Below, one piece after another: positions 75 to 16,831 of a stretch of DNA of 16,831 nucleotides (the first letter of the stretch is position 1; each line of letters starts with the position of its first letter). The position numbers and the translations under genes were made by a program. This stretch comes from a virus (taxonomy: Duplodnaviria > Heunggongvirae > Uroviricota > Caudoviricetes): IMG/VR virus record IMGVR_UViG_3300029878_000153. The stretch is one strand, 5' to 3'. The notes under the pieces were generated by a model, which was given only the letters and a program-made list of their open reading frames with translations, did no database searches and was not told the DNA's origin.

Positions 75-1547
75 TCACGGCGTCGATGCTGCGGCGTTGG
101 CAAAATAACTCAGTGGCCCCGGGTTTGCCGGAGAAAGAGTTACCGAACCGCTGGCAGGAATGCTGCCGCCAACTGGAACGTAATACGCTCTGCGCCCACC
201 CTGAGCAGCAGCTGTGCCAACGCTTGTGCGTGAGCTTTTGCCAAAGTTATAGGCCGTGTAGCCGGTTAGCTCCTGCAGGCGTGTCAGCATACGGGGGTTA
301 TCAACCATTGAATGGCCCCACCCGCAAATGATCGGCCTGGACATTACAGAGTGCTCAGTCAGATCATTGATATAGCAATAATACTGCCCACCCGGTGCGC
401 GATTAGTCTCCCTGTCCGATTGCCAGATAACCTTATCACCATCAACGCGTGGCAAGGTTTCATTACTGGATGTATTGGTTACACGAACCTGCTGACCTGT
501 ATCGCGATCAAACAGGAAAATCTGCTCATAGCCTTCTTTCTCTTCGCTAAATGCAATGTAATCAGGCTGACCTGAATTTGTCAGGTCCGATGATTTCAGC
601 GACTCGATAACAACCAGGTTTTCAGATGTGGATGCAGAAATGTATCCACTATCTGCATACTCATCAGGTGAGAGAAACGTTACTGACTCTGGAAGAGGTG
701 ATAATGCGTCAGTAACACCCTTTACCTCTGTAAAATCGCTTCCTTCAATTACCGCATCGTCAACAACAATTTTGCTAAAATAAATGGTGGTGCCTTTAAT
801 GCCAACAATAATTCTATTGTTTTCAGAAAAAGTTGCTGAGTCATACCCTGAATCCGAAAATTCAGATATATCGACAAAAGTCGAAGCCTGTAAAAAAGGA
901 ACGATTCCAAGAAGGCTCTGCCCGGAAATTAAAATGTCGTTTCCTGAAAGGATTTCAGCAGCGAATTGATCTGCGCTGATTTCCCCCGCTCTGATTTTTT
1001 GGAAAAACCACTCGACACCTTTCCTGGATAGTAGTATTTTTTTATTTTCATCTAGTATAGCCTCTTCCACCCCAGAATCTTTATATTCATCAGGAGGAAA
1101 GAACTCTGACGCCTGTGTTATATTTAACAAAGGAGAGTAGGGATCAATAGCATCATCTACATACTTCTTAGATGGCATTTTTCTACCGGTGGGCTCAAGA
1201 GTGCCACCATTGTTAATTACTTCAATAGCCAGCGCGCTATCGTCAGGGCTGCGGTAATACGTGGTAGAACCCACCGGGATATTCGCTATATCCGCCTGCG
1301 CCGCTGCCAGCGTCATGTATTGCCGGCTGAGAGGGATCAGGTTTTGGCGGGCTTCATCAATAACAGCGTCGGTAGCAGCTGCCATTTTTTTAGTAGCCCC
1401 AATTATCGTATCCCGGGCGTTACCAAAACGATCTATAAAAGTATCGCTTTCGCTGTTCAGGAAATCATCGTACGCCATGGCGTTATCATTCAGATCCTTC
1501 ATGCTATTTGAAGGTCTTGGATTGCCGGTATTATATCTTTTGTCCAT
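75..1547 (-). CDS. Hypothetical prophage cargo protein (about 490 aa) with three tandem ~70-aa internal repeats; function unknown
   Basis: Long open frame 75..1616. Start preferred at the ATG at 1545-1547 (MDKRY...), which has AGGA 6 nt upstream; in-frame alternative starts at 1565 and 1616. Repeats FPPDEYKDSGVEEAILDEN / ISEFSDSGYDSATFSENN / LSPDEYADSGYISASTSEN at ORF residues about 172-333. No signal peptide or TM segment apparent. Product not recognised. Confidence 0.55.
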   Translation of the reverse strand: MDKRYNTGNPRPSNSMKDLNDNAMAYDDFLNSESDTFIDRFGNARDTIIGATKKMAAATDAVIDEARQNLIPLSRQYMTLAAAQADIANIPVGSTTYYRSPDDSALAIEVINNGGTLEPTGRKMPSKKYVDDAIDPYSPLLNITQASEFFPPDEYKDSGVEEAILDENKKILLSRKGVEWFFQKIRAGEISADQFAAEILSGNDILISGQSLLGIVPFLQASTFVDISEFSDSGYDSATFSENNRIIVGIKGTTIYFSKIVVDDAVIEGSDFTEVKGVTDALSPLPESVTFLSPDEYADSGYISASTSENLVVIESLKSSDLTNSGQPDYIAFSEEKEGYEQIFLFDRDTGQQVRVTNTSSNETLPRVDGDKVIWQSDRETNRAPGGQYYCYINDLTEHSVMSRPIICGWGHSMVDNPRMLTRLQELTGYTAYNFGKSSRTSVGTAAAQGGRRAYYVPVGGSIPASGSVTLSPANPGPLSYFANAAASTP

Positions 1548-1587
1548 ACCTGTTCCTGTCTTCATCTTTTCAATGAAGCAATTAAGA

Positions 1588-1616
1588 TTGACGACCCGCC
1601 CCTTCAGGGCTAACAT
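1588..1616 (+). promoter_or_regulatory. Candidate sigma70 promoter for the HTH-acyltransferase operon (TTGACG -35, 17-nt spacer, TAACAT -10)
   Basis: TTGACG at 1588-1593 and TAACAT at 1611-1616 with a 17-nt spacer, read directly from the sequence; not verified. Confidence 0.3.
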
Positions 1617-1648: not shown

Positions 1649-1912
1649 ATGATTTTAATAAATAAATACACTCCTCCAACGCAGGAAGATTTAGCCAGAC
1701 TGAAATCCGCAATAAACTACTCCGGAAACCAAATGGCAGGGCTCGCAGGTGTAGCCAGCGATAGCCAATGGCGGAAATACACTGGCGGAGAGAGCCCCAG
1801 GGTAATGTCAAGACACATACTGTTTTATATTGCAGCTCAGCTTGTTCTGTCTGATGAGCAACTTAACAATGTAATAAATAAAATGCGCGATATTGGCGCG
1901 GAGATAAAATAA
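1649..1912 (+). CDS. Small Cro/YdaS-like helix-turn-helix DNA-binding protein (87 aa from ATG 1649; 95 aa if GTG 1625 is used)
   Basis: Segment GNQMAGLAGVASDSQWRKYTGG matches the helix-turn-helix pattern of Cro/YdaS-type regulators (G-x-Q-x-x-A-x-L-x-G-V-S...W). Stop TAA (1910-1912) overlaps the ATG of the downstream gene (TAATG). AT-rich. Confidence 0.5.
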   Translation: MILINKYTPPTQEDLARLKSAINYSGNQMAGLAGVASDSQWRKYTGGESPRVMSRHILFYIAAQLVLSDEQLNNVINKMRDIGAEIK

Positions 1913-3003
1913 TGCTTGGCCTAATAAGGTTTTTTTTGGCATCGTGCGTCATTGCTTTTCACTTAACGGCTCGCATACCTGCACTTGGCAACTTTGCAGT
2001 GAATTGCTTCTATGTTATCAGTGGTTTTTTAATAACATACATTTTGCATGAAACATACAAGTTCAACTTCTCTATGTTTTGGAAAAATAGAATACTGAGG
2101 TTATTCCCGGCATATATATTTTTTCTCGTCATGGGCTTTCTTATTATAAAATTAATTCCATCCGCAAAGGAATTCCACTCAAACTGGACAGGCAATTTCT
2201 TACCTGGAGATTTATTAGGAAACCTCTTAATCTTCCCCTGGGCTTTCCTTTCTGATAATGCTGTAGCAAATCCATTCGGTGCCTTTTCATCCATTTATCA
2301 CTTTGCTATTGATGGTAATAGATTCAGAATAGTCACATCATCATGGTCAGTGGGTGTTGAGATAACATGTTATTTTTTATTGTGGCTTTTCATAGCCCGA
2401 AATAAATTTACAGCCATTACGTCGATTCTGCTTTCACTGCTTTATCATGCTTACGTATATGTAGTACACCATTCTTTTGATATGGCGTATTTCCCATTCC
2501 TTGCTGCAACACTTCCTTTTAGCATGGGTTCTCTGGGTTATTTTGCCCATAGAAAGTTCAAAGCTATGTATCTTTCTCCACACAAAGCTTTTTTAATAAC
2601 ATTTATTTGCATCGGGATTTTTATTACCAATTGGTATTTATATACAATTAATGCATTAGGTCAGTACAACATAATACTTTACTACACCAATAATGTAATA
2701 GCATTGTTTACAACCCTGGTATTATTAAAAATAAAGACAAACATACATCTTGAGAAAATACTCAAGTGGTTTGGTGACCTGGCCTATCCAATTTTTCTTT
2801 GTCAATATTTTGGTGGATTTCTAGCATGGCTTGCTATTGGTGGTGAAAATCGTGGCTTATCCATCTTTTTATTAGGCTACCCAATATCAATTGCACTTGG
2901 GATCGTTTGTGTAATATTAATAGACAAGCCACTAATTAAAATTAGAGCAAAAATAAGGGCGGACGCTCAAAGCAAAAATAATCAGGAAAACTCTTCAAGG
3001 TAA
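1912..3003 (+). CDS. Acyltransferase family 3 (AT3) integral membrane acyltransferase, Oac/OafA-like; candidate O-antigen/LPS acetylase
   Basis: 363 aa, highly hydrophobic with multiple predicted TM segments. N-terminal R-x10-H motif (R6...H17 in MLGLIRFFLASCVIAFH) and FYVISGFLI motif typical of AT3 proteins. GGAGA Shine-Dalgarno 7 nt upstream of the ATG. Very AT-rich compared with neighbouring phage genes. Confidence 0.8.
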   Translation: MLGLIRFFLASCVIAFHLTARIPALGNFAVNCFYVISGFLITYILHETYKFNFSMFWKNRILRLFPAYIFFLVMGFLIIKLIPSAKEFHSNWTGNFLPGDLLGNLLIFPWAFLSDNAVANPFGAFSSIYHFAIDGNRFRIVTSSWSVGVEITCYFLLWLFIARNKFTAITSILLSLLYHAYVYVVHHSFDMAYFPFLAATLPFSMGSLGYFAHRKFKAMYLSPHKAFLITFICIGIFITNWYLYTINALGQYNIILYYTNNVIALFTTLVLLKIKTNIHLEKILKWFGDLAYPIFLCQYFGGFLAWLAIGGENRGLSIFLLGYPISIALGIVCVILIDKPLIKIRAKIRADAQSKNNQENSSR

Positions 3004-3767
3004 ACTAAACCATTCGCTCCTTTTCCTGATGAATAGTTACCATTCCCCCCGGCACCACCTGAGCCGGGGAAACCGCCATCATCGCCAGAACTACCGAAGT
3101 GGCCATTGCCACCCGTTGATGAAAATGCAGATCCTCCAGCCCCGCCAATAAAAGCATCAGAACCATAATACAGACCACCTTGAGATATTCCGCCAGTAAT
3201 ATTTAAAATGTTCCCGCCACTTCCGATACCTCCAGCAGGAACTGTAGCCCCGCCACCACTCCCTCCAGTAGCTGAGATTAAACTCCCGAACCTTGTATCA
3301 CCACCATTCCCACCTTTAGACGAGACACCAGCAGCAACAGCACTGCCACCAGTACCTATCGTCACAGATATAGTTTCGTTATCAGAAATATTAAATAACC
3401 CTTCCGAAAATCCACCAGCACAACCTCCAGATGCGCCCACACTAACTGGAGCATTCTGGCCACCTCCCCCCGCTCCCCAAACTTTCACCCGCACTCTTTT
3501 CGTCCCTTTAGTTGGAGTGTAAGTCCCTGACTTAGTAAAGGTGACAATATTAAGCAGGCGACCGCCACCAATCGCTTTAAGAACCTGTGAATCATCATCA
3601 GGATCAAGCTCAAGCCCCGCGCCCTCAACAACGTTTACCAGCTCACGCTGAAAGGTATTCATCATCTCAGCATTAATTATTGTCGGTGAAATACCATTAG
3701 CGACATTACCATTAGTGTATTCACCATTAGCATCAGCGGTGTCAGTTGTACTGCCAACTTTTCTCAT
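2982..3767 (-). CDS. Phage tail fiber protein, short (261 aa), with a glycine-rich C-terminal region
   Basis: Sits directly after the baseplate genes on the same strand with an AAGAAGG Shine-Dalgarno. N-terminal segment MMNTFQRELVNVVEGAGLELDPDDDSQVLKAI resembles the baseplate-attachment region of tail fibers; the C-terminal two thirds are GGxGG-rich low complexity. The last 7 codons overlap the 3' end of the convergent AT3 gene. Confidence 0.65.
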   Translation of the reverse strand: MRKVGSTTDTADANGEYTNGNVANGISPTIINAEMMNTFQRELVNVVEGAGLELDPDDDSQVLKAIGGGRLLNIVTFTKSGTYTPTKGTKRVRVKVWGAGGGGQNAPVSVGASGGCAGGFSEGLFNISDNETISVTIGTGGSAVAAGVSSKGGNGGDTRFGSLISATGGSGGGATVPAGGIGSGGNILNITGGISQGGLYYGSDAFIGGAGGSAFSSTGGNGHFGSSGDDGGFPGSGGAGGNGNYSSGKGANGLVYLEEFS

Positions 3768-3793
3768 ATAAACCTTCTTTTTAAATGTCTGAA

Positions 3794-4468
3794 TTAAACG
3801 TAACCAGAAGCGATATCAAATATTTTGGCAAACTCAGGCGTGACTTCGTAAACCCCCTCATCGTTAAAACCGAAATAGATATAGCCGAATTTGACCAGGG
3901 TGTATGAGGGGGCGAGGGCATTAATCCGGCATTCAAGCTGACGATTACCCCAGGAACGTAATGGATCGCCACAATAACTCAGACCTGCACGGGCATAAGT
4001 TATCGTTGTGTCTTCCGCCTCTACCAGCCAGACAAATGGCCAGTCATCCCCATTTAGCCCGTCACCACATACCGATAAGCCAGCACGCGCCTGCCGGTAT
4101 TCCTTAATCGAAATCGTATAACCCATTGCTGCGGCAATACTGATGAAATAGCTCTTTGACTGCCCGCCGGTACTGATGAGTTTCGATACAATGGCAGACT
4201 GACGCTTCGCAATCGTATCCACTTCGCCAATCGAGCAATCATCAGGTAAGCCGAGTGTTTTTTCCCACTCGGTGAGCATAATCGTCGCAGTTTTTGGAAA
4301 GGCACCGCGCAGCAATGCAAGTGCGTCGTTATCACTACGCTGGAAACTGGCCGCAATGGCCCGCAGCACAGCAGCCTGAACAGCTTTTGGATCCCGTGTC
4401 CACGCTCGGCCGGTGGGGATAAGCGCCTGCAGTGCCTTCTGATAATCGTCTGTTGAGAAAAGGCTCAT
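3794..4468 (-). CDS. Phage baseplate/tail protein, Mu gp48 / YmfQ-like (DUF2313-type)
   Basis: 224 aa; ATGA start/stop overlap with the upstream baseplate J gene; position and sequence character match the Mu-type wedge protein that precedes the fiber. Confidence 0.7.
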   Translation of the reverse strand: MSLFSTDDYQKALQALIPTGRAWTRDPKAVQAAVLRAIAASFQRSDNDALALLRGAFPKTATIMLTEWEKTLGLPDDCSIGEVDTIAKRQSAIVSKLISTGGQSKSYFISIAAAMGYTISIKEYRQARAGLSVCGDGLNGDDWPFVWLVEAEDTTITYARAGLSYCGDPLRSWGNRQLECRINALAPSYTLVKFGYIYFGFNDEGVYEVTPEFAKIFDIASGYV

Positions 4469-5613
4469 GTGTAGTTCACCTCGCCACGAACAGCCAGCTC
4501 CCCAACTCCCGGCTCAATATTCGCAGAAGGCGACACAAGGATATAACCTGAAGTACCGGCAACATCCCCTATCGCGCGGTTGAGATCTGAAAGGTAAATT
4601 TTCCCTGTGCCGAGCGGGTTAGCAGATTCAAACAATACCCCGTCAATCGCATCAGCAATGGCCGCAGTCGTTGCGCTGTCGGCATCAGATATCCCGCTTA
4701 TTTCAAAATCGATAACGCGTTCGATGGGAGAGCAGACATAGTTAAGGGAGGTAACCGGCGCAAGCGGATACATATAATCGGCAACTCTCCCCTGATCCCC
4801 GGTGGCTTTTACAGCCCCCCACTCTTCCAGTTGAGAGACACCGTCAGTTCCTGCAGGGAATCCATGATTGGTTTTATCATCGCCGTCGCACATGATGTAA
4901 ATCACCACGGTACCCGGCCCCATCCCCCGGCGCCGTATCCATGCCCTGGTGATCCCCGACACGGATAAAGCCCAGCTTTTATAATCAGTGTCACTCCCGC
5001 CCTGCGGGGGATTCTGATACGCCAGCAGACCACGTAATCGGAAATCCTCTTCACTTTCAATGTTGGCGCCGCCGGTGGCGGGCTCAATCAGCGTAACCGA
5101 GCTGTCTATGCCGGGGGCATTAGCATCCAGTGTAAGAATGGTGCCAGCATCGGCATTTCCGGAAGCGCCTCCTCCTGTCACATCGTCTGTGATATCCGGC
5201 AAAACCGCTGTTACAGCAACCGACGCACTGCCAGCAGTGTTTATCGTTATGGCATCATCGGTTGTGTACTGGTAACCATCATCACGGTTTAACACCGCCC
5301 CTTTTGACAGTGTTTTCCCCGGCGTTCCGGTAACGGTCGCCGCCGGAGAGCGTGCTGCCGTTGCGGCTTTTCGGTAAATCTGCTTTAGCGCCATCCATCC
5401 GGCAAGCCACTCATCGGTAGAGGTGAAAGGCGTGCTCTGACGGGCAATATAATCCAGGTAGGCGTAGTGCAGATGGGCCATGCCCGCATCCATATCAGCG
5501 AGCACCTTAAGGTTGCCAAACCGTAACAACGCGCCAACACTTTCAAGCTCTGCCTGCATAAACTGGCGATTCTCCTGCCGGAGCTCGCTCAGTGTTTTCC
5601 GCTTAAATGGCAT
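4465..5613 (-). CDS. Baseplate J-like protein (Mu gp47 / P2 gpJ family)
   Basis: 382 aa; order V - gp46 - J - gp48 - fiber conserved; translationally coupled to its neighbours. Confidence 0.8.
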   Translation of the reverse strand: MPFKRKTLSELRQENRQFMQAELESVGALLRFGNLKVLADMDAGMAHLHYAYLDYIARQSTPFTSTDEWLAGWMALKQIYRKAATAARSPAATVTGTPGKTLSKGAVLNRDDGYQYTTDDAITINTAGSASVAVTAVLPDITDDVTGGGASGNADAGTILTLDANAPGIDSSVTLIEPATGGANIESEEDFRLRGLLAYQNPPQGGSDTDYKSWALSVSGITRAWIRRRGMGPGTVVIYIMCDGDDKTNHGFPAGTDGVSQLEEWGAVKATGDQGRVADYMYPLAPVTSLNYVCSPIERVIDFEISGISDADSATTAAIADAIDGVLFESANPLGTGKIYLSDLNRAIGDVAGTSGYILVSPSANIEPGVGELAVRGEVNYT

Positions 5614-6052
5614 TATTCAGTTGCTCCCATAGCCAGAAGAATTTGAACTCCTGCCAGTCCCCCGTCGGCGGCAAATACCGGATGATGAGGTTCAGCCTGT
5701 TCGGGAAAACAATCTCTGACTGAGCCTCTATCGCTGCTGCAATACCATCCGACTTCATCCAGGCCAGAGCCTCTTCGGCGTAATCTTCAGCTCTCATCGC
5801 CACTTCGCGCGTCAGTTTTTCACGCCGCAGTAGCCACAGCCTTGAGCCAATATTCCGGTCGTTGTCCAGATCCCCCCACCAGCCGCGGCGGTCAGTTCCT
5901 TCATAATCATCATCAGCGCGCGCCAGTCCGTCAGTAAACAAACTGATAATAATGGCCGTGTGCATATCATTCTCAGATGTCAGTACGCCGTTACCGGTTT
6001 GCCAGTCAGCATGAATGGCATCCACATCCCAGAATGAGGAAATATCACTCAT
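5603..6052 (-). CDS. Baseplate wedge protein, Mu gp46 / T4 gp25-like (GPW/gp25 family)
   Basis: 149 aa; ATGA overlap with the upstream spike gene; characteristic size and position. Confidence 0.75.
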   Translation of the reverse strand: MSDISSFWDVDAIHADWQTGNGVLTSENDMHTAIIISLFTDGLARADDDYEGTDRRGWWGDLDNDRNIGSRLWLLRREKLTREVAMRAEDYAEEALAWMKSDGIAAAIEAQSEIVFPNRLNLIIRYLPPTGDWQEFKFFWLWEQLNNAI

Positions 6053-6630
6053 ACCTGACTCTCTGTTTTTTCGCTTGTGATCGTGCTATCGCCGGACTGA
6101 ACTTCTTTAACGTCATGGTCATGATCGTTGTGAGCATCCCGCAGCGCTTTGAGCGTTGAATTGTTCGTCTCGCAGTTATCGATGATGTCACCCGTCACCA
6201 GGAGTTTGGGGGTAACCAGCTTTACCTGTTCCGTTGCCGTCGCGGTGATGTTTCGGGCATTGTTGATCTCTACATCTTTGCCTTTCGCATCAATGAAAAT
6301 TCCCGCCTCAGTCAGATGAATATTCATCCCCTGCTGGTTATAGACCACCGTTTCGCCTGGCTTAAGCCCGGTATGCCGGTAGCTTTGATGGTTAGAGGCA
6401 ATGACGACGGGACTGGAGCGGTCCCCGCCGAGAAAGGCAATAAGCACATCCGATCCCGCCGGCAACCCCGATGAAAAACCAAAATCAGAGAGCCGTGGGG
6501 CGCTGGCCACTTCCAGCGGAGTCTGGTACTGGATTTCCTGCACAACCCCGCTATCTTTCTGCGTGGTAATACGGCCAATTCCCAGCATGCCGGCGATGCG
6601 CGTGGCCGATTTCTTTAAATTTTGATTCAT
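6049..6630 (-). CDS. Baseplate spike / assembly protein V (Mu gp45 / P2 gpV-like)
   Basis: 193 aa; C-terminal HNDHDHD His-rich apex motif as in gpV/gp5-type spikes; gene order. Confidence 0.8.
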   Translation of the reverse strand: MNQNLKKSATRIAGMLGIGRITTQKDSGVVQEIQYQTPLEVASAPRLSDFGFSSGLPAGSDVLIAFLGGDRSSPVVIASNHQSYRHTGLKPGETVVYNQQGMNIHLTEAGIFIDAKGKDVEINNARNITATATEQVKLVTPKLLVTGDIIDNCETNNSTLKALRDAHNDHDHDVKEVQSGDSTITSEKTESQV

Positions 6631-7340
6631 TGGTTTAGTCCGGGTATTTGCTGGTAGAAAGCATAAGGCTGGACAGCGAAAGCCTCCGGGGGCATCAGAT
6701 AAAGGCGCGCATGGGTGCCGTCACTGTCTCTGATATAAGTCACCTCTGCGATAAGCAATTCGGTGTCAGGCAGCTGCAGACTCGGGATGTTGACCGGGAT
6801 AAGCGTATTCGGCTCCCATAATCTCCCGGATTTATCGCGCCAGGAATCAATCGTCACCGTTAACTGACGGGAACGGCCGTATCGGCGGTTCATCTCCCAG
6901 TCAATCGCTCGCTGAGCCTGTTGTGAAGCCATCAGTGTACTTTCAACAATAATGATCCGTTTTCGGTAACGCATACTGGCTGCCTCAGGATCGCGGGCCG
7001 TAGCCAGCGTCACCGAATCATAAGCCGTATCTGGCGAGAATCCTGCAATCGGCGAAATGCTCATCGATACGCCGACGTAATCAGAAAAGCGGTCAGCCAT
7101 CGAACGGCGGTAATAAGCCTGTTCGATATTTACCCCTTCTGCGATACCACTGGCCGCGCGCTTTGTCCCCACCCGGGTCAGAAATAAGTTACCGTCAGGC
7201 TGATCGTAATAAAGCAATGCCGACCAGCGGGAGACACGATCAAGTATTTCCTGTGGCGATTCCCCCCAGTTCAGGGAAAATTGCGGGACTTTCACCAGAT
7301 CATCAACGTCTGTACTTACGCCAATGTTGTAATGGGATGC
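6627..7340 (-). pseudogene. Baseplate hub protein (P2 gpD / Mu gp44 family), 5'-truncated fragment
   Basis: The C-terminal part of the 7487..6627 ORF shows gpD-family character (QQAQRAIDWEMNRRYGRSRQLTVTIDSW...). The first ~50 codons of the ORF are low-complexity read-through into integrase DNA on the opposite strand. The gpD homology and the roughly 140 missing N-terminal residues rest on a recalled P2 gpD sequence, not an alignment. The upper coordinate is approximate. Confidence 0.6.
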
Positions 7341-7420
7341 GAGGCGGGAGGCTAGACGGGATGGAAAACCGCCGCCATCGCCTGAACTGGGAAATGAGCC
7401 GGGACAGGTGTTTGCGGCTT

Positions 7421-8194
7421 GGCAAGCCAGTGCCGGAGTATAAACCAAAGCTGGCAAGCAAAGGAACGAAGACGCGGCATCTGGCAATACTTCGCGCTAT
7501 TCTCAATATGGCTGTTGAATGGGGATGGCTTGACAGGCCTCCCAAAATATCAACACCACGCGTTAAGAATGGACGCATTAGATGGCTTACAGAAGAGGAA
7601 TCGAAGCGCCTGTTTGCAGAAATAGCTCCTCATTTCTTCCCTGTGGTCATGTTCGCAATAACTACAGGCCTTCGCCGTTCCAACGTTACAGACCTTGAGT
7701 GGTCACAGGTCGATCTGGATAAGAAAATGGCATGGATGCACCCTGATGAAACAAAAGCTGGCAATGCGATCGGAGTTCCTCTTAACGAAACCGCATGCCA
7801 GATATTAAGAAAACAGCAGGGTCTCCATAAGAGATGGGTGTTTGTCCACACCAAACCTGCCTACCGAAGCGACGGAACAAAAACAGCAGCGGTAAGGAAG
7901 ATGAGAACCGACAGCAACAAAGCATGGAAGGGAGCGTTAAAGCGGGCAGGCATTAGCAACTTCCGCTTCCATGACCTGAGGCATACCTGGGCAAGCTGGC
8001 TGGTTCAGTCCGGTGTCTCTCTTCTTGCACTTAAAGAGATGGGAGGATGGGAAACTCTCGAAATGGTTCAAAGATACGCCCACCTTTCAGCCGGGCATCT
8101 CACCGAGCACGCAAGCAAAATCGATGCGATTATAAGTCGCAATGGCACAAATACGGCACAAGAGGAGAACGTGGTTTACTTAAATGCTAGGTAA
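7421..8194 (+). pseudogene. Tyrosine recombinase (phage integrase), 5'-truncated; catalytic domain retained
   Basis: Catalytic signatures present: TGLRRS (Arg), HDLRHT (H-x-x-R), RYAHL (Tyr). Only about 85 residues precede the catalytic Arg, versus about 210 in lambda Int, so the N-terminal arm-binding domain is missing. The ORF-track extension back to 7163 is antisense read-through of the hub gene. Stop TAA at 8192-8194, 15 bp from the tRNA 3' end. Start coordinate approximate. Confidence 0.75.
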
Positions 8195-8225
8195 CTTATT
8201 GATTTAAATGGTGCCGATAATAGGA
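8195..8225. other. Predicted attL region (3' end of thrW plus the spacer to the integrase stop)
   Basis: Position only: the integrase ends 15 bp from the tRNA CCA end. The exact core cannot be defined without the attR copy, which is outside the window. Confidence 0.4.
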
Positions 8226-8284
8226 GTCGAACCTACGACCTTCGCATTACGAATGCGCTGCTCTACCAACTGAGCTATATCGGC
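8209..8284 (-). tRNA. thrW: tRNA-Thr (anticodon CGU)
   Basis: Reverse complement reads GCCGATATAGCTCAGTTGGTAGAGCAGCGCATTCGTAATGCGAAGGTCGTAGGTTCGACTCCTATTATCGGCACCA: 76 nt cloverleaf with 7-bp acceptor stem, GTTCGA T-loop, encoded CCA, anticodon CGT. Confidence 0.95.
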
Positions 8285-8335
8285 CCTGAAAGGACATGTT
8301 CACGAACGTGAATCACGGTGGACAAGGTTAAAACT

Positions 8336-8394
8336 AACCGGGCGATGCGTCAATGGCCTTGTGAATCAAATGGCTACTTTTGCATCACCCGGTT
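8336..8394 (-). terminator. Long inverted repeat immediately after the proA stop, followed by a U-run; candidate terminator/attenuator before thrW
   Basis: 12-bp arms AACCGGGCGATG (8336-8347) and CATCACCCGGTT (8383-8394), one G-U position, separated by about 35 nt; on the minus-strand transcript the stem is followed by AGUUUUAACC. The loop is unusually large, so confidence is low. Confidence 0.3.
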
Positions 8395-8398
8395 TTAT

Positions 8399-9652
8399 TT
8401 ACGCACGAATGGTGTAATCACCAATGCCGATCCACTTGTAAGTGGTCAGTGCTTCCAGCCCCATTGGGCCACGCGCGTGGAGTTTTTGTGTGCTTACCGC
8501 CACTTCCGCACCCAGACCAAACTGGCCGCCGTCGGTAAAACGCGTAGAGGCGTTAACGTAAACAGCGGACGAATCCACTTCGTTAACAAAACGCTGGGCG
8601 TTGCGCATATCGCGGGTCAGGATCGCATCGGAGTGTTGTGTGCCGTGTTCACGAATATGGGCGATGGCATCGTCAAGATCGCTGACGATTTTGACGTTCA
8701 AATCTAATGACAGAAACTCATCGTCATACTCTTCGGCTTTAACAGCAACCACCTTCGCAGGGCCTGCCTGCAACTGCGCCAGTGCAGCTGCATCTGCGTG
8801 TAATGTCACGCCGCTTTCCGCCATTTGTTTGCTTAATGCGGGCAGGAAGCTATCGGCGATGTTTTTATTCACCAGCAACGTTTCAACCGTATTACATGTG
8901 CTCGGACGCTGAGTTTTCGCGTTGACGATCACTTTTAATGCTTCAGCGATCTCTACACTTTCATCAACGTAAATATGGCATACGCCTATACCACCTGTGA
9001 TCACCGGGATTGTCGACTGTTCACGGCACAGTTTATGCAAACCAGCGCCACCACGCGGGATCAGCATGTCGATGTATTTATCCATACGCAGCATTTCACT
9101 GACCAGCGCACGGTCAGGATTATCAATCGCCTGCACGGCACCCGCCGGTAAGCCGCAGGATTTCAGGGCGTCCTGAATCACCGCCACCGTTGCAGCGTTA
9201 GTGCGACACGTTTCTTTGCCACCGCGCAGGATCACCGCATTACCGGTTTTCAGGCACAGCGAAGCGACATCAACCGTCACGTTCGGGCGCGCTTCATAAA
9301 TCACGCCAATAACCCCCAGCGGTACGCGACGACGCTCAAGACGCAGGCCGCTGTCCAGTACGCCGCCATCGATTACCTGCCCCACCGGATCGGCGAGGTT
9401 ACACACCTGGCGCACATCGTCGGCAATGCCTTTCAGCCGTGCGGGCGTCAGTGCCAGACGGTCAAGCATCGCTTCGCTAAGGCCGTTGGCACGCGCGTCA
9501 GCAACATCCTGCGCGTTAGCGTTGAGGATGATTTCGCTTTGTGCTTCCAGTTCATCGGCTATTTTTTCCAGTACGCGATTTTTTTCGCGGCTGGAGAGTT
9601 GCGCTAATTTATACGAGGCTTGCTTCGCGGCAATGCCCATTTGTTCCAGCAT
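8399..9652 (-). CDS. proA: Gamma-glutamyl phosphate reductase
   Basis: 417-aa ORF recognised as ProA ([20 protein letters not shown]...), aldehyde dehydrogenase-like; conserved synteny downstream of proB. Confidence 0.96.
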
Positions 9653-9663
9653 CAGCCTGCTCC

Positions 9664-10767
9664 TTAACGGGTAATCATGTCATCACGGTGAACGGCAACC
9701 GGGCCGTATTCATATCCCAGTATTGCATCAATTTCTTGCGAGTGGTGTCCGGCAATACGGCGTAATGCATCGCTGTTGTAACGACTGACACCGTGGGCGA
9801 TATCGCGGCCTTCGAGGTTGCAAATGCGGATGACTTCACCACGCGAGAAGTTGCCAGTCACGCTTTTAATGCCTTTCGGCAACAGGGAGCTGCCGCGTTC
9901 CAGAATGGCGGCAGTTGCCCCTTCATCTACCGTGATTTCCCCCGCAGGCGGCGCACCGAAAATCCAGCGTTTACGGTTTTCAAGCGGAGTCGCCTGGGCA
10001 TGGAACAGCGTACCGACGGAAATGCCTTCCATCACATCACCAATAACGCCCGGCTTGCTGCCCGCGGCAATAATGGTGTCGATACCCGCACGGCAAGCCA
10101 CGTCAGCGGCCTGCAATTTGGTACTCATGCCGCCAGTTCCGAGGCCTGAAACGCTGTCACCGGCAATCGCGCGCAGTGCGTCATCAATGCCGTAAACATC
10201 TTTAATCAGTTCTGCCTGCGGATTGCTGCGCGGATCAGCGGTATACAAACCTTTTTGATCGGTCAGCAGCAACAGTTTATCGGCACCCGCCAGAATCGCC
10301 GCCAGCGCAGAAAGGTTATCGTTATCGCCGACCTTAATCTCTGCCGTAGCGACAGCATCGTTCTCATTGATTACCGGAACGATATTGTTATCGAGCAACG
10401 CACGCAGGGTGTCGCGGGCGTTCAGGAAGCGTTCTCGGTCTTCCATATCAGCACGGGTCAGCAGCATTTGCCCGACGTGAATGCCATAAATCGAAAACAG
10501 CTGTTCCCACAGTTGAATCAGTCGACTCTGCCCTACCGCCGCCAGCAGTTGTTTCGAGGCGATAGTCGCTGGCAGTTCCGGGTAACCCAGGTGCTCACGT
10601 CCGGCGGCGATCGCGCCCGACGTCACAATAACAATCCGATGCCCGGCGGCATGTAACTGCGCGCACTGGCGAACAAGTTCAACGATATGGGCACGGTTCA
10701 GACGGCGCGATCCGCCTGTTAGCACACTGGTGCCGAGTTTTACCACCAGCGTCTGGCTGTCACTCAT
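9664..10767 (-). CDS. proB: Glutamate 5-kinase
   Basis: Recognised as ProB beginning [16 protein letters not shown] (ATG at 10765-10767); the ORF-track start at 10854 is an upstream in-frame extension. 11-nt gap to proA. Confidence 0.96.
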
Positions 10768-10955
10768 GATTCTCTGCCATTCAATTTTAGGAAAAATGAT
10801 ATCAAACGAACGTTTTAGCAGGACTGTCGTCGGTTGCCAACCATCTGCGAGCAAAGCATGGCGTTTTGTTGCGCGGGATCAGCAAGCCTAGCGGCAGTTG
10901 TTTACGCTTTTATTACAGATTTACTAAATTACCACATTTTAAGAATATTATTAAT

Positions 10956-10973
10956 CTGTAATATATCTTTAAC
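10956..10973 (+). promoter_or_regulatory. Pho box (PhoB binding site) in the phoE promoter
   Basis: CTGTAATATATCTTTAAC matches the 7-4-7 pho box consensus CTGTCAT-A(A/T)A(T/A)-CTGTCA(C/T); it lies about 80 bp upstream of the phoE start. phoE is a known Pho regulon member. Confidence 0.6.
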
Positions 10974-11054
10974 AATCTCAGGTTAAAAACTTTCCTGTTT
11001 TCAACGGGACTCTCCCGCTGAATATTCGCGCGTTAATTAAAATCAGGAATGAAA

Positions 11055-12110
11055 ATGAAAAAGAGCACTCTGGCATTAGTGGTGATGGGCATTGTGGCAT
11101 CTGCATCCGTACAGGCCGCAGAAATATATAACAAAGACGGTAATAAACTGGATGTCTATGGCAAAGTTAAAGCCATGCATTATATGAGTGATAACGACAG
11201 TAAAGATGGCGACCAGAGTTATATCCGTTTTGGTTTTAAAGGCGAAACACAAATTAACGATCAACTGACTGGCTATGGTCGTTGGGAAGCGGAGTTTGCC
11301 GGTAATAAAGCAGAGAGTGATACTGCACAGCAAAAAACGCGTCTCGCTTTTGCCGGGTTGAAATATAAAGATTTGGGTTCTTTCGATTATGGTCGTAACC
11401 TGGGCGCGTTGTATGACGTGGAAGCCTGGACCGATATGTTCCCGGAATTTGGTGGCGACTCCTCGGCGCAGACCGACAACTTTATGACCAAACGCGCCAG
11501 CGGTCTGGCGACGTATCGGAACACCGACTTCTTCGGCGTTATCGATGGCCTGAACTTAACCCTGCAATATCAAGGGAAAAACGAAAACCGCGACGTTAAA
11601 AAGCAAAACGGCGATGGCTTCGGCACGTCATTGACATATGACTTTGGCGGCAGCGATTTCGCCATTAGTGGGGCCTATACCAACTCAGATCGCACCAACG
11701 AGCAGAACCTGCAAAGCCGTGGCACAGGCAAGCGTGCAGAAGCATGGGCTACAGGTCTGAAATACGATGCCAATAATATTTATCTGGCAACTTTTTATTC
11801 TGAAACACGCAAAATGACGCCAATAACTGGCGGCTTTGCCAATAAGACACAGAACTTTGAAGCGGTCGCTCAATACCAGTTTGACTTTGGTCTGCGTCCA
11901 TCGCTGGGTTATGTCTTATCGAAAGGGAAAGATATTGAAGGTATCGGTGATGAAGATCTGGTCAATTATATCGATGTCGGGGCTACGTATTATTTCAACA
12001 AAAATATGTCAGCGTTTGTTGATTATAAAATCAACCAACTGGATAGCGATAACAAATTGAATATTAATAATGATGATATTGTCGCGGTTGGCATGACCTA
12101 TCAGTTTTAA
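11055..12110 (+). CDS. phoE: Outer membrane phosphoporin PhoE
   Basis: Recognised PhoE sequence with signal peptide [21 protein letters not shown] and C-terminal aromatic residue (...TYQF); AGGA 6 nt upstream of the ATG at 11055. The ORF-track start at 11049 is 2 codons upstream. Confidence 0.95.
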
Positions 12111-12118
12111 TGGATATT

Positions 12119-12139
12119 GCCGGATGTGATACATCCGGC
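12119..12139. terminator. Perfect 9-bp stem hairpin between convergent phoE and crl; candidate bidirectional terminator or REP-like element
   Basis: GCCGGATGT-GAT-ACATCCGGC; no strong U-tract on either side, so terminator function is uncertain. Confidence 0.4.
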
Positions 12140-12148
12140 ACATTTCAC

Positions 12149-12607
<459 letters not shown>

Positions 12608-13852
12608 TTAACACAAACGTTTTTCGATCCAGTCTGTGATTTCCTGAAGACCTTTGTCAAAATTCCGATACACCGGGTTAAATGGGATCTCTAATAATTT
12701 ACCGTCAGCAGATGATGAGGTGATTAAGCGTGAGTCCTCTTCCGGGCTGAACGGATCGTTCTTCCAGTAGCCTGATAACATTGGCGTTGGGCAGCGACGT
12801 CCCAGCAATCCTTGCACTTTTAATGAATAGCGATTCAGCTCCACGCGCAACGCTTCATCGGAAGCATCATGCATCCCCAAACGACTGGCCAGAACGTCAA
12901 GATACATTTCCGGCACCTGTTGCTGGCACTTAAAATCACTCAACAGGGTATGAACTACCGGACCAAGACAGGCAACCGCTTTCAGACGCGGCGATTCAAG
13001 ATATGCCAGACGCACGGCAACGTTAGCGCCGAAACGGAAACCAAAGGCCGCGACGCGAGTGTGATCCACCCACGGTACGTTAGGCAGCGCCTTTAAGACG
13101 TGCTGATGCAACAGGCTGGAGTCCTGGGTGAGCTTCCATTTTGAAGAAAAGCCCACCGATGGCATATCAATAGTCAGCATCGCAATGCCGCGCGGCGCAA
13201 AATAACGTTCATACAGGCTGTAATAGTCCGTCTGCATCGCATCCAGACCACCACACATTAATACTGTCGGGAACGGGCCATCGCCTTTCGGCATATGCAA
13301 AAAGCCGGTGATGGGCGCACCGCCGGGTACGGTAAACTCCATCTGCCGCATCGTGCCCGGCAGACGCTGGGCGGCCTCTTCATAGGCGCGGTTTGATAAA
13401 GCCTGCGCTTGCTCGGCCAGGTCATCTCCTTTCAGATGAGGATAGGCGGCAATGTTGTACAACGTAGCCGCATGCAGCCAGTGTCGACCACTGAGTTGCG
13501 GATCTTCTTCCGCACAGGCTTTTTGTTGCCACACCATCGCCTGGGTGGCCCACTCATAAATCCAGTTGCCACCACGGTAGCCAATCACAGTATCGTATAA
13601 ATCATCGTCGGTACGTTCAGCATCGCTCATCACAATACGTGCCTGGACGTCGAGGATTTCACGTGGGTCAATACCGCGCCAGATCCACATCAGACGGTTA
13701 ATCATGCGATACCAGTGAGGGATGGTTTTACCATCAAGAGCCGACTGCACAGGCGGTTGTGCGCCGTGATTAAAGCGGCGGACTAGCGTCGAGGTTTCAG
13801 GATGTTTAAAGCGGGGTTTGAACAGGGTTTCGCTCAGGTTTGCCTGTGTCAT
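12608..13852 (-). CDS. frsA: Fermentation/respiration switch protein FrsA (alpha/beta hydrolase fold esterase)
   Basis: 414-aa ORF recognised as FrsA ([27 protein letters not shown]...); conserved position between gpt and crl. Confidence 0.95.
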
Positions 13853-13902
13853 GGATGCAGCCTCCAGAATACTTACTGGAAACTATTGTAACCTGCCTGA
13901 AG

Positions 13903-13935
13903 TTAAAAAGAACAACGCCCGGCAGTGCCAGGCGT
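13903..13935 (-). terminator. Rho-independent terminator downstream of gpt
   Basis: On the minus-strand transcript: stem AACGCCUGGCA / UGCCGGGCGUU with loop CUG, followed by GUUCUUUUUAAC; begins 9 nt after the gpt stop. Confidence 0.55.
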
Positions 13936-13943
13936 TGAAAAGA

Positions 13944-14402
13944 TTAGCGACCGGAGATTGGCGGGACGAATACGACGCCCATATCCCACGGCTGTTCGAT
14001 CCAGGTATCTTGCGGGATATCAACAACATAGTCATCAACCAGCGGACGACCAGCCGGTTTTGCGAAGATGGTGACAAAGTGCGCTTTTGGATACATTTCA
14101 CGAATCGCAACCGCAGTACCACCGGTATCCACCAGGTCATCAATAACGATGAAGCCTTCGCCATCGCCTTCTGCGCGTTTCAGCACTTTAAGCTCGCGCT
14201 GGTTGTCGTGATCGTAGCTGGAAATACAAACGGTATCGACATGACGAATACCCAGTTCACGCGCCAGTAACGCACCCGGTACCAGACCGCCACGGCTTAC
14301 GGCAATAATGCCTTTCCATTGTTCAGAAGGCATCAGTCGGCTTGCGAGTTTACGTGCATGGATCTGCAACATGTCCCAGGTGACGATGTATTTTTCGCTC
14401 AT
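13944..14402 (-). CDS. gpt: Xanthine-guanine phosphoribosyltransferase
   Basis: 152-aa ORF recognised as Gpt ([23 protein letters not shown]...), with PRPP-binding motif [11 protein letters not shown]. Confidence 0.96.
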
Positions 14403-14662
14403 GTGAAGTGTCCCAGCCTGTTTATCTACGGCTTAAAAAGTGTTCGAGGGGAAAATAGGTTGCGCGAGATTATAGAGATCTGGCGCACTAAAAACCAGTA
14501 TTTCACATGAGTCCGCGTCTTTTTACGCACTGCCTCTCCCTGACGCGGGATAAAGTGGTATTCTCAAACATATCTCGCAAGCCTGTCTTGTGTTGACAAC
14601 ATTTTCTGCTAACCCTGTGACCTGCAATACTGTTTTGCGGGTGATCGACAAGGAGACTTAAC

Positions 14663-16120
14663 GTGTCTGAACTGTCTCAATTATCTCCACAGCCGCTGTG
14701 GGATATTTTTGCCAAAATCTGTTCTATTCCTCACCCGTCCTATCATGAAGAGCAACTCGCTGAATACATTGTTGGTTGGGCAAAAGAGAAAGGTTTCCAT
14801 GTCGAACGCGATCAGGTAGGTAATATCCTGATTCGTAAACCTGCCACCGCAGGTATGGAAAATCGTAAACCGGTCGTCTTGCAGGCCCACCTCGATATGG
14901 TGCCGCAGAAAAATAACGACACCGTGCATGACTTCACGAAAGATCCTATCCAGCCTTATATTGATGGTGAATGGGTTAAAGCGCGCGGCACCACGCTGGG
15001 TGCAGATAACGGCATTGGTATGGCGTCTGCGCTGGCGGTTCTGGCTGACGAAAACGTGGTTCACGGCCCGCTGGAAGTGCTGCTGACCATGACCGAAGAA
15101 GCCGGTATGGACGGTGCGTTCGGCTTACAGAGCAACTGGTTGCAGGCTGATATTCTGATTAACACCGACTCCGAAGAAGAAGGTGAAATCTACATGGGTT
15201 GCGCGGGGGGTATCGACTTCACCTCCAACCTGCATTTGGATCGTGAAGCGGTTCCAGCTGGCTTTGAAACCTTCAAGTTAACCTTAAAAGGTCTAAAAGG
15301 CGGTCACTCCGGCGGTGAAATCCACGTTGGCCTGGGTAATGCCAACAAACTGCTGGTGCGCTTCCTGGCGGGTCATGCGGAAGAGCTGGACCTGCGCCTT
15401 ATCGATTTCAACGGTGGCACACTGCGTAACGCCATCCCGCGTGAAGCCTTTGCGACCATTGCTGTCGCAGCTGATAAAGTCGACGCCCTGAAATCTCTGG
15501 TGAATACCTATCAGGAGATCCTGAAAAACGAGCTGGCAGAAAAAGAGAAAAATCTGGCCTTGTTGCTGGACTCTGTAGCGAACGATAAAGCTGCCCTGAT
15601 TGCGAAATCTCGCGATACCTTTATTCGTCTGCTGAACGCCACCCCGAACGGTGTGATCCGCAACTCCGACGTGGCAAAAGGTGTGGTCGAAACCTCCCTG
15701 AACGTCGGTGTGGTGACCATGACTGACAATAACGTAGAAATTCACTGTCTGATCCGTTCTCTGATCGACAGCGGTAAAGACTACGTGGTGAGCATGCTGG
15801 ATTCGCTGGGTAAACTGGCTGGCGCGAAAACCGAAGCGAAAGGCGCATATCCTGGCTGGCAGCCGGACGCTAATTCTCCGGTGATGCATCTGGTACGTGA
15901 AACCTATCAGCGCCTGTTCAACAAGACGCCGAACATCCAGATTATCCACGCGGGCCTGGAATGTGGTCTGTTCAAAAAACCGTATCCGGAAATGGACATG
16001 GTTTCTATCGGGCCAACAATCACCGGTCCACACTCTCCGGATGAGCAAGTTCACATCGAAAGCGTTGGTCATTACTGGACACTGCTGACTGAACTGCTGA
16101 AAGAAATTCCGGCGAAGTAA
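14663..16120 (+). CDS. pepD: Cytosol non-specific dipeptidase (aminoacyl-histidine dipeptidase, M20 family)
   Basis: 485-aa ORF recognised as PepD (MSELSQLSPQPLWDIFAKICSIPHPSYHEE...); GTG start at 14663 with AGGAG 8 nt upstream. Confidence 0.96.
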   Translation: MSELSQLSPQPLWDIFAKICSIPHPSYHEEQLAEYIVGWAKEKGFHVERDQVGNILIRKPATAGMENRKPVVLQAHLDMVPQKNNDTVHDFTKDPIQPYIDGEWVKARGTTLGADNGIGMASALAVLADENVVHGPLEVLLTMTEEAGMDGAFGLQSNWLQADILINTDSEEEGEIYMGCAGGIDFTSNLHLDREAVPAGFETFKLTLKGLKGGHSGGEIHVGLGNANKLLVRFLAGHAEELDLRLIDFNGGTLRNAIPREAFATIAVAADKVDALKSLVNTYQEILKNELAEKEKNLALLLDSVANDKAALIAKSRDTFIRLLNATPNGVIRNSDVAKGVVETSLNVGVVTMTDNNVEIHCLIRSLIDSGKDYVVSMLDSLGKLAGAKTEAKGAYPGWQPDANSPVMHLVRETYQRLFNKTPNIQIIHAGLECGLFKKPYPEMDMVSIGPTITGPHSPDEQVHIESVGHYWTLLTELLKEIPAK

Positions 16121-16132
16121 TTATTTGATTTG

Positions 16133-16170
16133 CTGCCGGATGGCGTTTAATCGCCTTCCGGCAGTTTCAT
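16133..16170 (+). terminator. Hairpin terminator after pepD (also separates the convergent prfH remnant)
   Basis: Arms CTGCCGGATGGCG / CGCCTTCCGGCAG with one mismatch, loop TTTAAT, followed by TTTCATCCTTCATTAT; starts 13 nt after the pepD stop. Confidence 0.5.
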
Positions 16171-16176
16171 CCTTCA

Positions 16177-16696
16177 TTATCCTTCGATAAAAGCCATCCC
16201 TGTAAATGTCCGTCGCGGGTTGCCACGTTCAATCTGGTGATGGAACATTCGCCGCTGCGATTTCAGCGCCGCGCTATTTTCCTGTTGCTGCTGCTCCAGC
16301 TTCCAGGCAATCAGCAATCGCGCCAGCCGTTTGTTAGCATGCTGGCTGCGCTCTGACTGAACCTTCACGCTAATACCGGATGCCAGATGCGTGGCGCGTA
16401 CCGCCGAGTCGGTTTTATTGACATGTTGACCGCCCGGCCCCGACGAACGCAGCGTCTCATAACGGATTGCATCCGATTGTTCCTTCTCATCAGCGGTAAA
16501 ACGCCCAATGCCCAGAAACCAGTTTTTGCGCCCATGATGAGGCCGATACGGACTCGGACAAATCCACTGAATAGTGCCACACCAGCTTTCGCTTAATGCC
16601 CATGCGTTATCGCCATCCAGAGAAACCAGCGCCGAACGCAGCGTGTCAGAGTAGCGGCCCGTTTCTGTTTCCAGCACCGTTACAGCGACGTCTTGT
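16177..16696 (-). pseudogene. prfH: Peptide chain release factor homolog RF-H, N-terminally truncated remnant
   Basis: Contains the GGQ motif ([11 protein letters not shown]) of class I release factors. The first ~12 codons of the ORF-track frame ([11 protein letters not shown]) are rtcB-like DNA read in another frame, so the real N-terminus is missing. Same pepD-adjacent position as the prfH pseudogene recalled from E. coli K-12. Confidence 0.6.
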
Positions 16697-16831
16697 CGGG
16701 TAAAAACGACCAACAGAGAAGAACGCTGCGCCAATCGGGTAGCCGCGTCCGGGGTGTAAATCTGGCATCCCCACTACGCGCTGCATGTTGGGTAAATTTG
16801 CCGTGGTGTGTAATTGTTGGATCGCTAAACT
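16697..16831 (-). pseudogene. RtcB-like RNA ligase gene fragment entering from the right edge, disrupted at about 16697 (ykfJ-like)
   Basis: The minus-strand frame open from the window edge reads ...[45 protein letters not shown], matching the conserved RtcB MPD(L/V)HxGxGxxIG motif region, then loses frame and terminates shortly after. Confidence 0.5.

Follow-up and report, generated by a model that had tools for sequence, protein, structure and literature searches.

The window, that is, the whole 16,831-nucleotide stretch analysed here, comprised phage DNA in its left half, starting with the terminal 76 bp of an IS3-family element, and ordinary Escherichia coli chromosome in its right half (8209-16831), which had 99% identity to E. 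coli HS. Phage genes were assigned from open reading frames (ORFs), Pfam matches, and the annotation of relatives, the junction from a three-way alignment of the window with an intact hub gene and an intact integrase gene, and the tRNA gene with ARAGORN and Rfam. The features are as follows.

Window start, 76 bp: end of an IS3-family element; similarity to uninterrupted relatives ends at base 77
75-1616, minus strand: TolB-like beta-propeller tailspike or fibre gene, its 3′ end cut by the IS3
1912-3003, plus strand: Acyl_transf_3 acyltransferase
2982-3767, minus strand: glycine-rich fibre protein
3794-4468, minus strand: gp48/YmfQ
4465-5613, minus strand: baseplate J/gp47
5603-6052, minus strand: GP46
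6049-6630, minus strand: gp45-like spike
6627-7354, minus strand: baseplate hub remnant of the Mu gp44/gpP type, codons 121-361 and stop
7163-7352, plus strand: 63 spurious codons at the 5′ end of the integrase ORF, antisense to the hub gene
7353-7354, no strand: TA, very probably a deletion breakpoint
7355-7487, minus strand: 44 spurious codons at the 5′ end of the hub ORF, antisense to the integrase gene
7355-8194, plus strand: tyrosine integrase remnant, codons 107-386 and stop
8209-8284, minus strand: thrW, tRNA-Thr(CGU) gene
8209-16831: chromosomal genes thrW, proA, proB, phoE, crl, frsA, gpt, and pepD

Between the IS3 sequence and thrW, only a baseplate and fibre block, the acyltransferase gene, and two gene stumps were left. 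The gene order and strands, with the acyltransferase on the plus strand, the tail genes on the minus strand, the integrase on the plus strand, and the tRNA on the minus strand, were those of a prophage with a lambda layout, and the region from 1912 to 6630 is its surviving distal block. The tailspike or fibre gene encoded 513 aa in the window, compared with an uninterrupted coding sequence of 2,112 bases (approximately 703 aa) in strain 22F46, and an IS3 transposase adjoined the same gene in two of the related records described below (L023 and L015).

The thrW integration site and its 46-bp core have been described previously (PMC3636060, PMC3630932), and the core is used by SfI, SfII, SfV, and SfX (PMC3636060). 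Window positions 8209-8254 were exactly this 46-bp att core, which together with the remainder of thrW (8209-8284) was located beside the integrase gene; the xis-like gene was deleted in the window. A 63-bp copy, corresponding to window positions 8192-8254, recurred at the far end of an intact prophage in JNQH497. In thrW prophages, the integrase and an O-antigen modification gene are located at opposite ends (PMC3630932), and the layout of the window fits this arrangement. The same 46-bp core is also given for P22-type phages.

Two ORFs on opposite strands, at 6627-7487 on the minus strand (286 aa) and at 7163-8194 on the plus strand (343 aa), were both open across 7163-7487, as the earlier note on this DNA had reported. 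When the window was aligned to the intact hub gene of E. coli EC20 (361 aa) and to the intact integrase gene of the E. coli HS thrW prophage, hub-derived bases matched up to 7354 and integrase-derived bases matched from 7353. The TA at 7353-7354 comprised the only bases common to both parental sequences, a 2-bp microhomology of the kind that the earlier note had proposed to look for, and a GGAGGC just upstream of it was imperfectly shared. The low-complexity sequence that had been read into both frames beyond about 7340-7420 was not present; rather, hub and integrase sequences abutted at 7353/7354, and the bases from 7355 to 7420 were real integrase sequence, found verbatim in the intact HS integrase. 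Accordingly, the hub start formerly set near 7340 was roughly placed, but the true start is A121 (ASRLASHYNIGV), four residues earlier, and the integrase start formerly set at 7421 gives way to D107 (DGMENRRHRLNWEMSRDRCLRLGKPVPEYK), 22 residues (66 nt) earlier. The central observation, two 5′-truncated genes that abut one another, was borne out, with residues 121-361 of 361 remaining in the hub and residues 107-386 of 386 in the integrase.

No IS element, gene, or RNA was located between the remnants, consistent with the previous view that no genuine gene intervenes. The only ORFs found at the junction were alternative-frame ORFs internal to the integrase gene, and an Rfam search returned the tRNA as its sole match, with no RNA family at the junction. 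Additionally, a promoter scan of 6600-8400 revealed no sigma-70-like site, and a new promoter created by the fusion is therefore unsupported.

Up to base 7354, the hub remnant had 99.8% identity to its 361-aa counterpart in E. coli EC20; it had lost its N-terminal third, and codon 120 was a hybrid at the junction (Ile to Leu). In Pfam, the intact EC20 hub matched GpP-like_1st, Gp44-like_2nd, and GpP_4th, together with a Phage_GPD match; the remnant matched Gp44-like_2nd from profile position 25 onwards and GpP_4th, and GpP-like_1st was absent. The domain search thus bore out the predicted loss of the hub N-terminus, since all of GpP-like_1st and positions 1-24 of the second domain were gone. 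The intact relative matched Mu gp44 (PDB 1WRU, 4e-42) and MuSo2 (3CDD, 3.5e-51), and it aligned to the Mu gp44 (gpP) hub over residues 9-347 with the same Pfam domains. In contrast to Mu gp44/gpP, the window copy was without residues 1-120, comprising domain 1 and part of domain 2, and hence did not carry the full Mu gp44/gpP domain set over approximately 360 aa. The closest cultured phage for the hub, based on a protein search, was Citrobacter phage phiNP, with 83% amino-acid identity. Because it has neither a start codon nor a promoter of its own, the window hub is a pseudogene.

The integrase remnant had 99.2% identity to the integrase encoded by the thrW prophage of E. coli HS and approximately 98% identity to those of phages HK542, mEpX2, HK75, and SfX. 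Its catalytic domain was complete (PF00589, E = 5e-35, covering 2-170 of 172 positions), and the R, H-x-x-R, and Y motifs were readable in the translation as TGLRRSN, HDLRHTW, and QRYAHL. In these respects, and in the position of its gene beside a tRNA att site, it resembled the lambda-family integrases of the four phages above, from which it differed in having neither the N-terminal 106 residues nor a xis. Specifically, the locus had lost those residues together with the start codon, the promoter, and the upstream xis-like helix-turn-helix gene (HTH_17), which overlaps the 5′ end of intact integrase copies. The true start in HS is ATG-TCA-ATC (MSIKLRGG), and a 386-aa gene was called in two related records (L025 and L026); a full-length lambda-type Int with its N-terminal region and own start codon is not what the window encodes. 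The proposal that an N-terminal arm-binding domain is missing stood insofar as the first 106 of 386 residues were gone, but the arm-binding identity of that region was unmatched in Pfam: at E-values up to 10, the lost N-terminus returned only a sub-threshold DUF6538 and no known arm-binding domain. A PDB sequence search likewise matched catalytic domains only. By analogy with lambda Int, the lost residues would probably correspond to the arm-binding domain plus the beginning of the core-binding domain.

A GGAGG motif was present 9 nt before an in-frame ATG at 7361, and because of this placement gene callers give a 277-aa product. We rejected an expressed, N-terminally truncated Int starting at this ATG, the GGAGG motif being present in intact integrase genes as well.

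Within the window, antisense stop-free runs of at least 44 codons occurred at 20% of positions inside genes, and those of at least 63 codons at 11%. Because antisense runs of such length are common here, it is unremarkable that the two frames read through each other for 44 and 63 codons at the junction. A new chimeric gene arising from this read-through was also considered and rejected, given how common such runs are and that the extensions are without homologues. The length of the two ORFs (286 and 343 aa) and the fact that both are open across the junction would be in keeping with two intact genes that use unusual start codons and have suffered no truncation. This reading has a negligible probability, because the upstream parts of each ORF are the antisense of the other gene, and both the comparison with intact homologues and the domain searches reveal missing N-termini.

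Exact look-ups of the window proteins recovered further records that carry the junction. An identical 41-mer across it was present in five of them (L015 to L019), and two more, the complete chromosome CP043739.1 (L023) and L029, aligned collinearly with the window through the junction, differing by 3 SNPs over 16.6 kb. The junction was base-identical in at least seven independent public records, which included isolate genomes and metagenomes from different projects. Among 5,426 complete RefSeq E. coli genomes neither this junction nor that of the related record L020 was found, and the exact junction was absent from one-genome-per-species representatives. In L017, the remnant, thrW, and proA were base-identical to the window, but 37 SNPs were present from proB onwards.

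Prophages are classic sites of misassembly, and the window begins inside an IS element, as draft contigs often do; both points would suit an assembly chimera in which reads from two prophages had been mis-joined. Such an origin is nevertheless extremely improbable, as only 2 bp are common to the two sides at the join, leaving no repeat to mislead an assembler, and the junction recurred in seven or more records produced by different projects and assemblers, one of them a finished chromosome. The junction is real and not an assembly artefact.

In intact relatives, head, terminase, lysis, Q/nin, replication, and early genes are located between the hub and integrase genes, in agreement with the premise of the earlier note that integrase and late tail genes are normally separated. 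A look-up of gp45 identified related deletion states, that is, near-identical prophages at proA-thrW with 99.98-100% identity to the window and other internal deletions. The tail block of the window was present in L025, L026, L027, L028, and L020, with 0-1 SNP in 6.7-7.3 kb. All of these apart from L027 also carried the integrase and a match to the thrW att core, and joined the integrase and tail halves via differing internal deletions; the proA flank was additionally seen in L025 and L028. From the integrase inwards, their contents are as follows.

L025: integrase, early genes to a cI-like repressor, junction, tail-completion, sheath, and tube genes, junction, hub
L026: integrase, early genes (erf, kil, and cIII among them), junction immediately upstream of the hub
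L028 and L020: integrase minus its ATG, sheath fragment, TAC fragment, tape-measure C-terminus, DNA-circularisation gene, hub

In L020 and L028, three junctions were present, with overlaps of 4, 6, and 2 bp. L027 was almost intact from terminase through tail, and the 7.3 kb that it shares with the window were 100% identical. The window state is carried by the assemblies GCA_009767345.1, GCA_964007095.1, GCA_013352005.1, and GCA_004281435.2, the L028 state by GCA_030892285.1, the L025 and L026 states by GCA_018578325.1 and GCA_012992765.1, and the L027 state by GCA_014683585.1. Two of the deletion states were mutually non-nested, in that L025 has the sheath and tube genes, which L026 is without, and L026 has erf, kil, and cIII, which L025 is without; these two records also share a private SNP (2130T). 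Their non-nested contents therefore call for a common, more complete ancestor in which the integrase and the tail were already linked. Moreover, the far end of L025 had a 98.3% match to the 300 bp beside attL of the intact 45-kb thrW prophage in JNQH497, which encodes the same integrase protein as the prophage studied here and is bounded by the 63-bp thrW direct repeat.

Other look-ups were less specific to the locus. The acyltransferase returned only the common prophages at yecD and the yciI site, and the IS3-truncated tailspike protein returned short contigs only. At other sites in E. coli, namely at yecD, in the kch-yciI interval, and at serU, prophages commonly carry the tail block. This integrase and this tail were not recovered together in a single intact copy.

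The frequency of the tail block at other loci would be expected if the two halves had come from two prophages at different loci, with a lambdoid prophage at thrW contributing the integrase and a Mu-tailed prophage at yecD, yciI, or serU contributing the tail. In E. coli HS, the best integrase match is indeed at thrW and the best hub match is located 1.8 Mb away at serU, and a yecD gene fragment accompanies the tail end at the yciI site. The halves would then have been joined by an inter-prophage rearrangement, for example, an inversion or a large deletion, and rearrangements between prophages are known in E. coli. We consider the dual origin very unlikely, and the rearrangement that it entails every bit as unlikely. 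At least four different non-homologous junctions tie the same integrase region to the same tail in the same orientation, and two of those junctions are mutually non-nested; repeated independent illegitimate joins between loci are very improbable, and deletions within one element explain all of the junctions. Additionally, the far end of the tail-bearing element is the attL-proximal sequence of a thrW phage, and the strand layout is that of a single lambda-type prophage. Both the derivation from two prophages and the assembly chimera are effectively ruled out.

We conclude that 7353/7354 is very probably the scar of an internal deletion in one temperate prophage integrated at thrW beside proA. 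The intact phage would have carried, in this order, attL, the tailspike, the acyltransferase, a Mu-like contractile tail, a lambda-like head, terminase, lysis genes, Q/nin, replication genes, cro/cI, P22-like early genes, xis, int, and attR/thrW. An illegitimate, homology-independent joining at TA would have removed everything from hub codon 120 to integrase codon 106. The other junctions in the deletion series had overlaps of 2, 4, 6, and 9 bp and no IS element, and these short overlaps without an IS therefore point to RecA-independent illegitimate recombination. From the anatomy of the junction, the mechanism would probably belong to the class of replication slippage or microhomology end-joining.

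The previous proposal of a single deletion that removed the central prophage was supported as to an internal deletion within one prophage, but it need not have taken place as a single event. If it started from an intact element, the deletion would amount to roughly 30-35 kb, an estimate from two relatives (an integrase-to-hub distance of approximately 31 kb in 23CRST046, and an att-to-att distance of 45.6 kb in JNQH497 versus 8.1 kb remaining); from an L028-like intermediate, it would amount to only 3.3 kb. It is quite possible, if short of probable, that the scar is the last of several nested deletions, in which an intermediate like L020 and L028 lost a further 3.3 kb. These two records are at the same site and 1 SNP from the window in 6.7-7.3 kb, and the three internal deletions that they already carry are all enclosed by the interval lost from the window. 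As a rule, this element evidently decays in steps, with two or more scars each in L025 and L027. However, L020 and L028 have a private derived SNP (5078 G to C) that neither the window state nor any outgroup shows. This makes the L028 lineage, as sampled, a sister rather than an ancestor of the window state; the two histories require the same number of events. An earlier L028-like ancestor of the window state may have existed. Any earlier scars within the lost interval would be erased.

The losses listed by the earlier note (xis, here a xis-like gene, regulators, head, sheath, and tube) were confirmed, and they extended to the immunity, replication, and lysis genes. At the other end, the IS3 insertion cuts the element off further from its attL; the attL end itself is outside the window. 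Beyond the IS3, L023 carries a nin-region AAA-ATPase cassette as in a DLP12-like prophage in place of the element's own distal genes, and this foreign cassette therefore implies at least one further rearrangement at the far end. Because the integrase is truncated, xis is absent, and the far end is disrupted by IS3, neither excision nor induction would be expected, and judging from its gene content the remnant would be unable to excise, replicate, lyse, or build particles. We infer, on sound grounds, that the deletion would have locked the remnant in place, as was proposed earlier. With phage genes retained at an att site and the excision, regulatory, replication, lysis, and head genes missing, it fits the concept of the "grounded" prophage (PMC6379469).

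The leftover baseplate genes would be without their late promoter, and the acyltransferase, on the opposite strand, would plausibly be the only gene that is still useful. If retained for function, the acyltransferase may O-acetylate the O-antigen and thereby block superinfection. It is unlikely, though conceivable, that the distal block of baseplate wedge, fibre genes, and acyltransferase has been kept by selection, with several independent deletion histories at thrW converging on it, and that the remnant has spread between lineages by homologous recombination, to which the SNPs of L017 from proB onwards would point.

The remnant is of the same kind as the known defective lambdoid prophages, such as CP4-6 at thrW in K-12, DLP12, Rac, Qin, and the SfII/SfX thrW remnants of Shigella flexneri. 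It shares with these cryptic prophages its location at a tRNA att site, a probable inactivation of excision, the deletion of lytic and most structural genes, an IS at one end, and the retention of cargo of an O-antigen-modification type, which here is putative. It differs from CP4-6 and the Sf remnants in carrying a Mu-type baseplate block and Acyl_transf_3 rather than gtrABC or CP4-6 genes. Like the serotype-converting Shigella phages of the SfV/SfI type, it has the same att core, an integrase beside att, lambdoid control, and a Mu-like tail, beyond which a putative O-antigen-modifying gene is located at the prophage end opposite the integrase. The window integrase was 98.3% identical in DNA to that of SfX. 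In contrast, the structural genes were distant from those of SfV, with a hub only 29% identical to SfV orf16, so that close relatedness to SfV/SfI was not borne out in these genes, and the cargo is a predicted acyltransferase in place of gtrABC. A megablast of the tail block against cultured phages returned no match, and the block was placed by protein-level search only.

The junction is thus a new instance of a well-known feature, the scar that a deletion leaves in defective lambdoid prophages next to tRNA att sites, and the finding is textbook prophage decay ("grounding"), with little significance beyond correct annotation. For annotation, the ORFs across 7163-7487 should be treated as pseudogene stumps and not as 286-aa and 343-aa proteins, and the element itself should be marked as a remnant that is probably non-inducible. 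As a side result, the records provide a modest natural series of near-identical prophage copies at one site that bear partly independent microhomology deletions, and this series could be used to time or order the deletion events, or to probe selection on the acyltransferase end.

The remnant, together with thrW and proA, is base-identical between the window and L017, a public record carrying the same junction, and 37 SNPs then separate the two from inside proB (10105) to the end of the compared sequence (window 10105-16684). This onset marks a recombination boundary in proB, and the remnant is thus present on two different chromosomal backgrounds. In phoE, two positions only 18 bp apart, 11273 and 11291, are C and G in the window, whereas the other five records with sequence here (L015, L016, L017, L023, and L029) all have T and A.

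Around the junction, where the hub remnant meets the integrase (int) remnant, an in-frame ATG at 7361 is preceded by GGAGG, 9 nt upstream (window 7347-7363). This codon is Met-109 of Int, numbered from the MSIKLRGG start, and the GGAGG motif before it is also found in intact int genes. The motif explains why even full-length copies, for instance the one in record L021, are called as 277-aa integrases. Additionally, the junction is flanked by a perfect 11-nt inverted repeat, CCCAGTTCAGG and CCTGAACTGGG, at 7265-7275 and 7381-7391, with one arm from hub-derived DNA and the other from int-derived DNA; by rough estimate, about 0.06 such pairs would be expected by chance in 700 bp.

At the other end of the remnant, two features adjoin (window coordinates):
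1-76, end of an IS3-family element
75-1616, TolB-like tailspike gene, its 3′ end interrupted by the IS3-family element

The interrupted tailspike comprises 513 aa, versus an intact CDS of 2,112 bases in 22F46. In the finished chromosome CP043739.1 (L023), the IS3 is followed by a cassette of an AAA-ATPase and a hypothetical gene (L023 16555-20582), and in strain TW10828 the same cassette belongs to a DLP12-like prophage, where it occupies the nin region. This suggests that two prophages were joined through an IS3-mediated deletion or inversion.

The acyltransferase and the tail block are conserved among strains, whereas the gene directly upstream of the acyltransferase differs strongly (L031-L040, about 7000-9636), its types being SGNH/GDSL hydrolase, SASA sialate esterase, and TolB-like propeller, of 591-854 aa. 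This variable gene appears to be an exchangeable cassette for receptor binding or depolymerase activity. The acyltransferase (plus strand) and the glycine-rich fibre gene (minus strand) are convergent, and their 3′ ends share 22 bp (window 2982-3003), an overlap kept in all relatives. In yciI-site prophages with the window's tail block, the tail end bears a 3′ fragment of yecD, an isochorismatase gene (L004 7808-8041; L005 16193-16426). Elsewhere, sister prophages are inserted at yecD itself. The fragment is a hint that prophages at the yciI and yecD loci have recombined in the past.

The sister prophage at serU in E. coli HS has its own head-to-head scar (L003 20769-21889), where an N-terminally truncated integrase beside tRNA-Ser is butted against an N-terminally truncated hypothetical gene; the decay is of the same kind as in the window but at a different site.

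Finally, in L018 (5815 onward), which shares the window's junction, and L026 (1-1437), the same prophage with a different internal deletion, thrW is represented after the int stop codon solely by its 3′ part, the att core. Beyond this core lies a further integrative element, represented in L018 by a 441-aa integrase bearing Arm-DNA-bind_3 and in L026 by an EcoRII-N gene. These arrangements are tandem insertions at thrW, which was therefore still used after the prophage had decayed.
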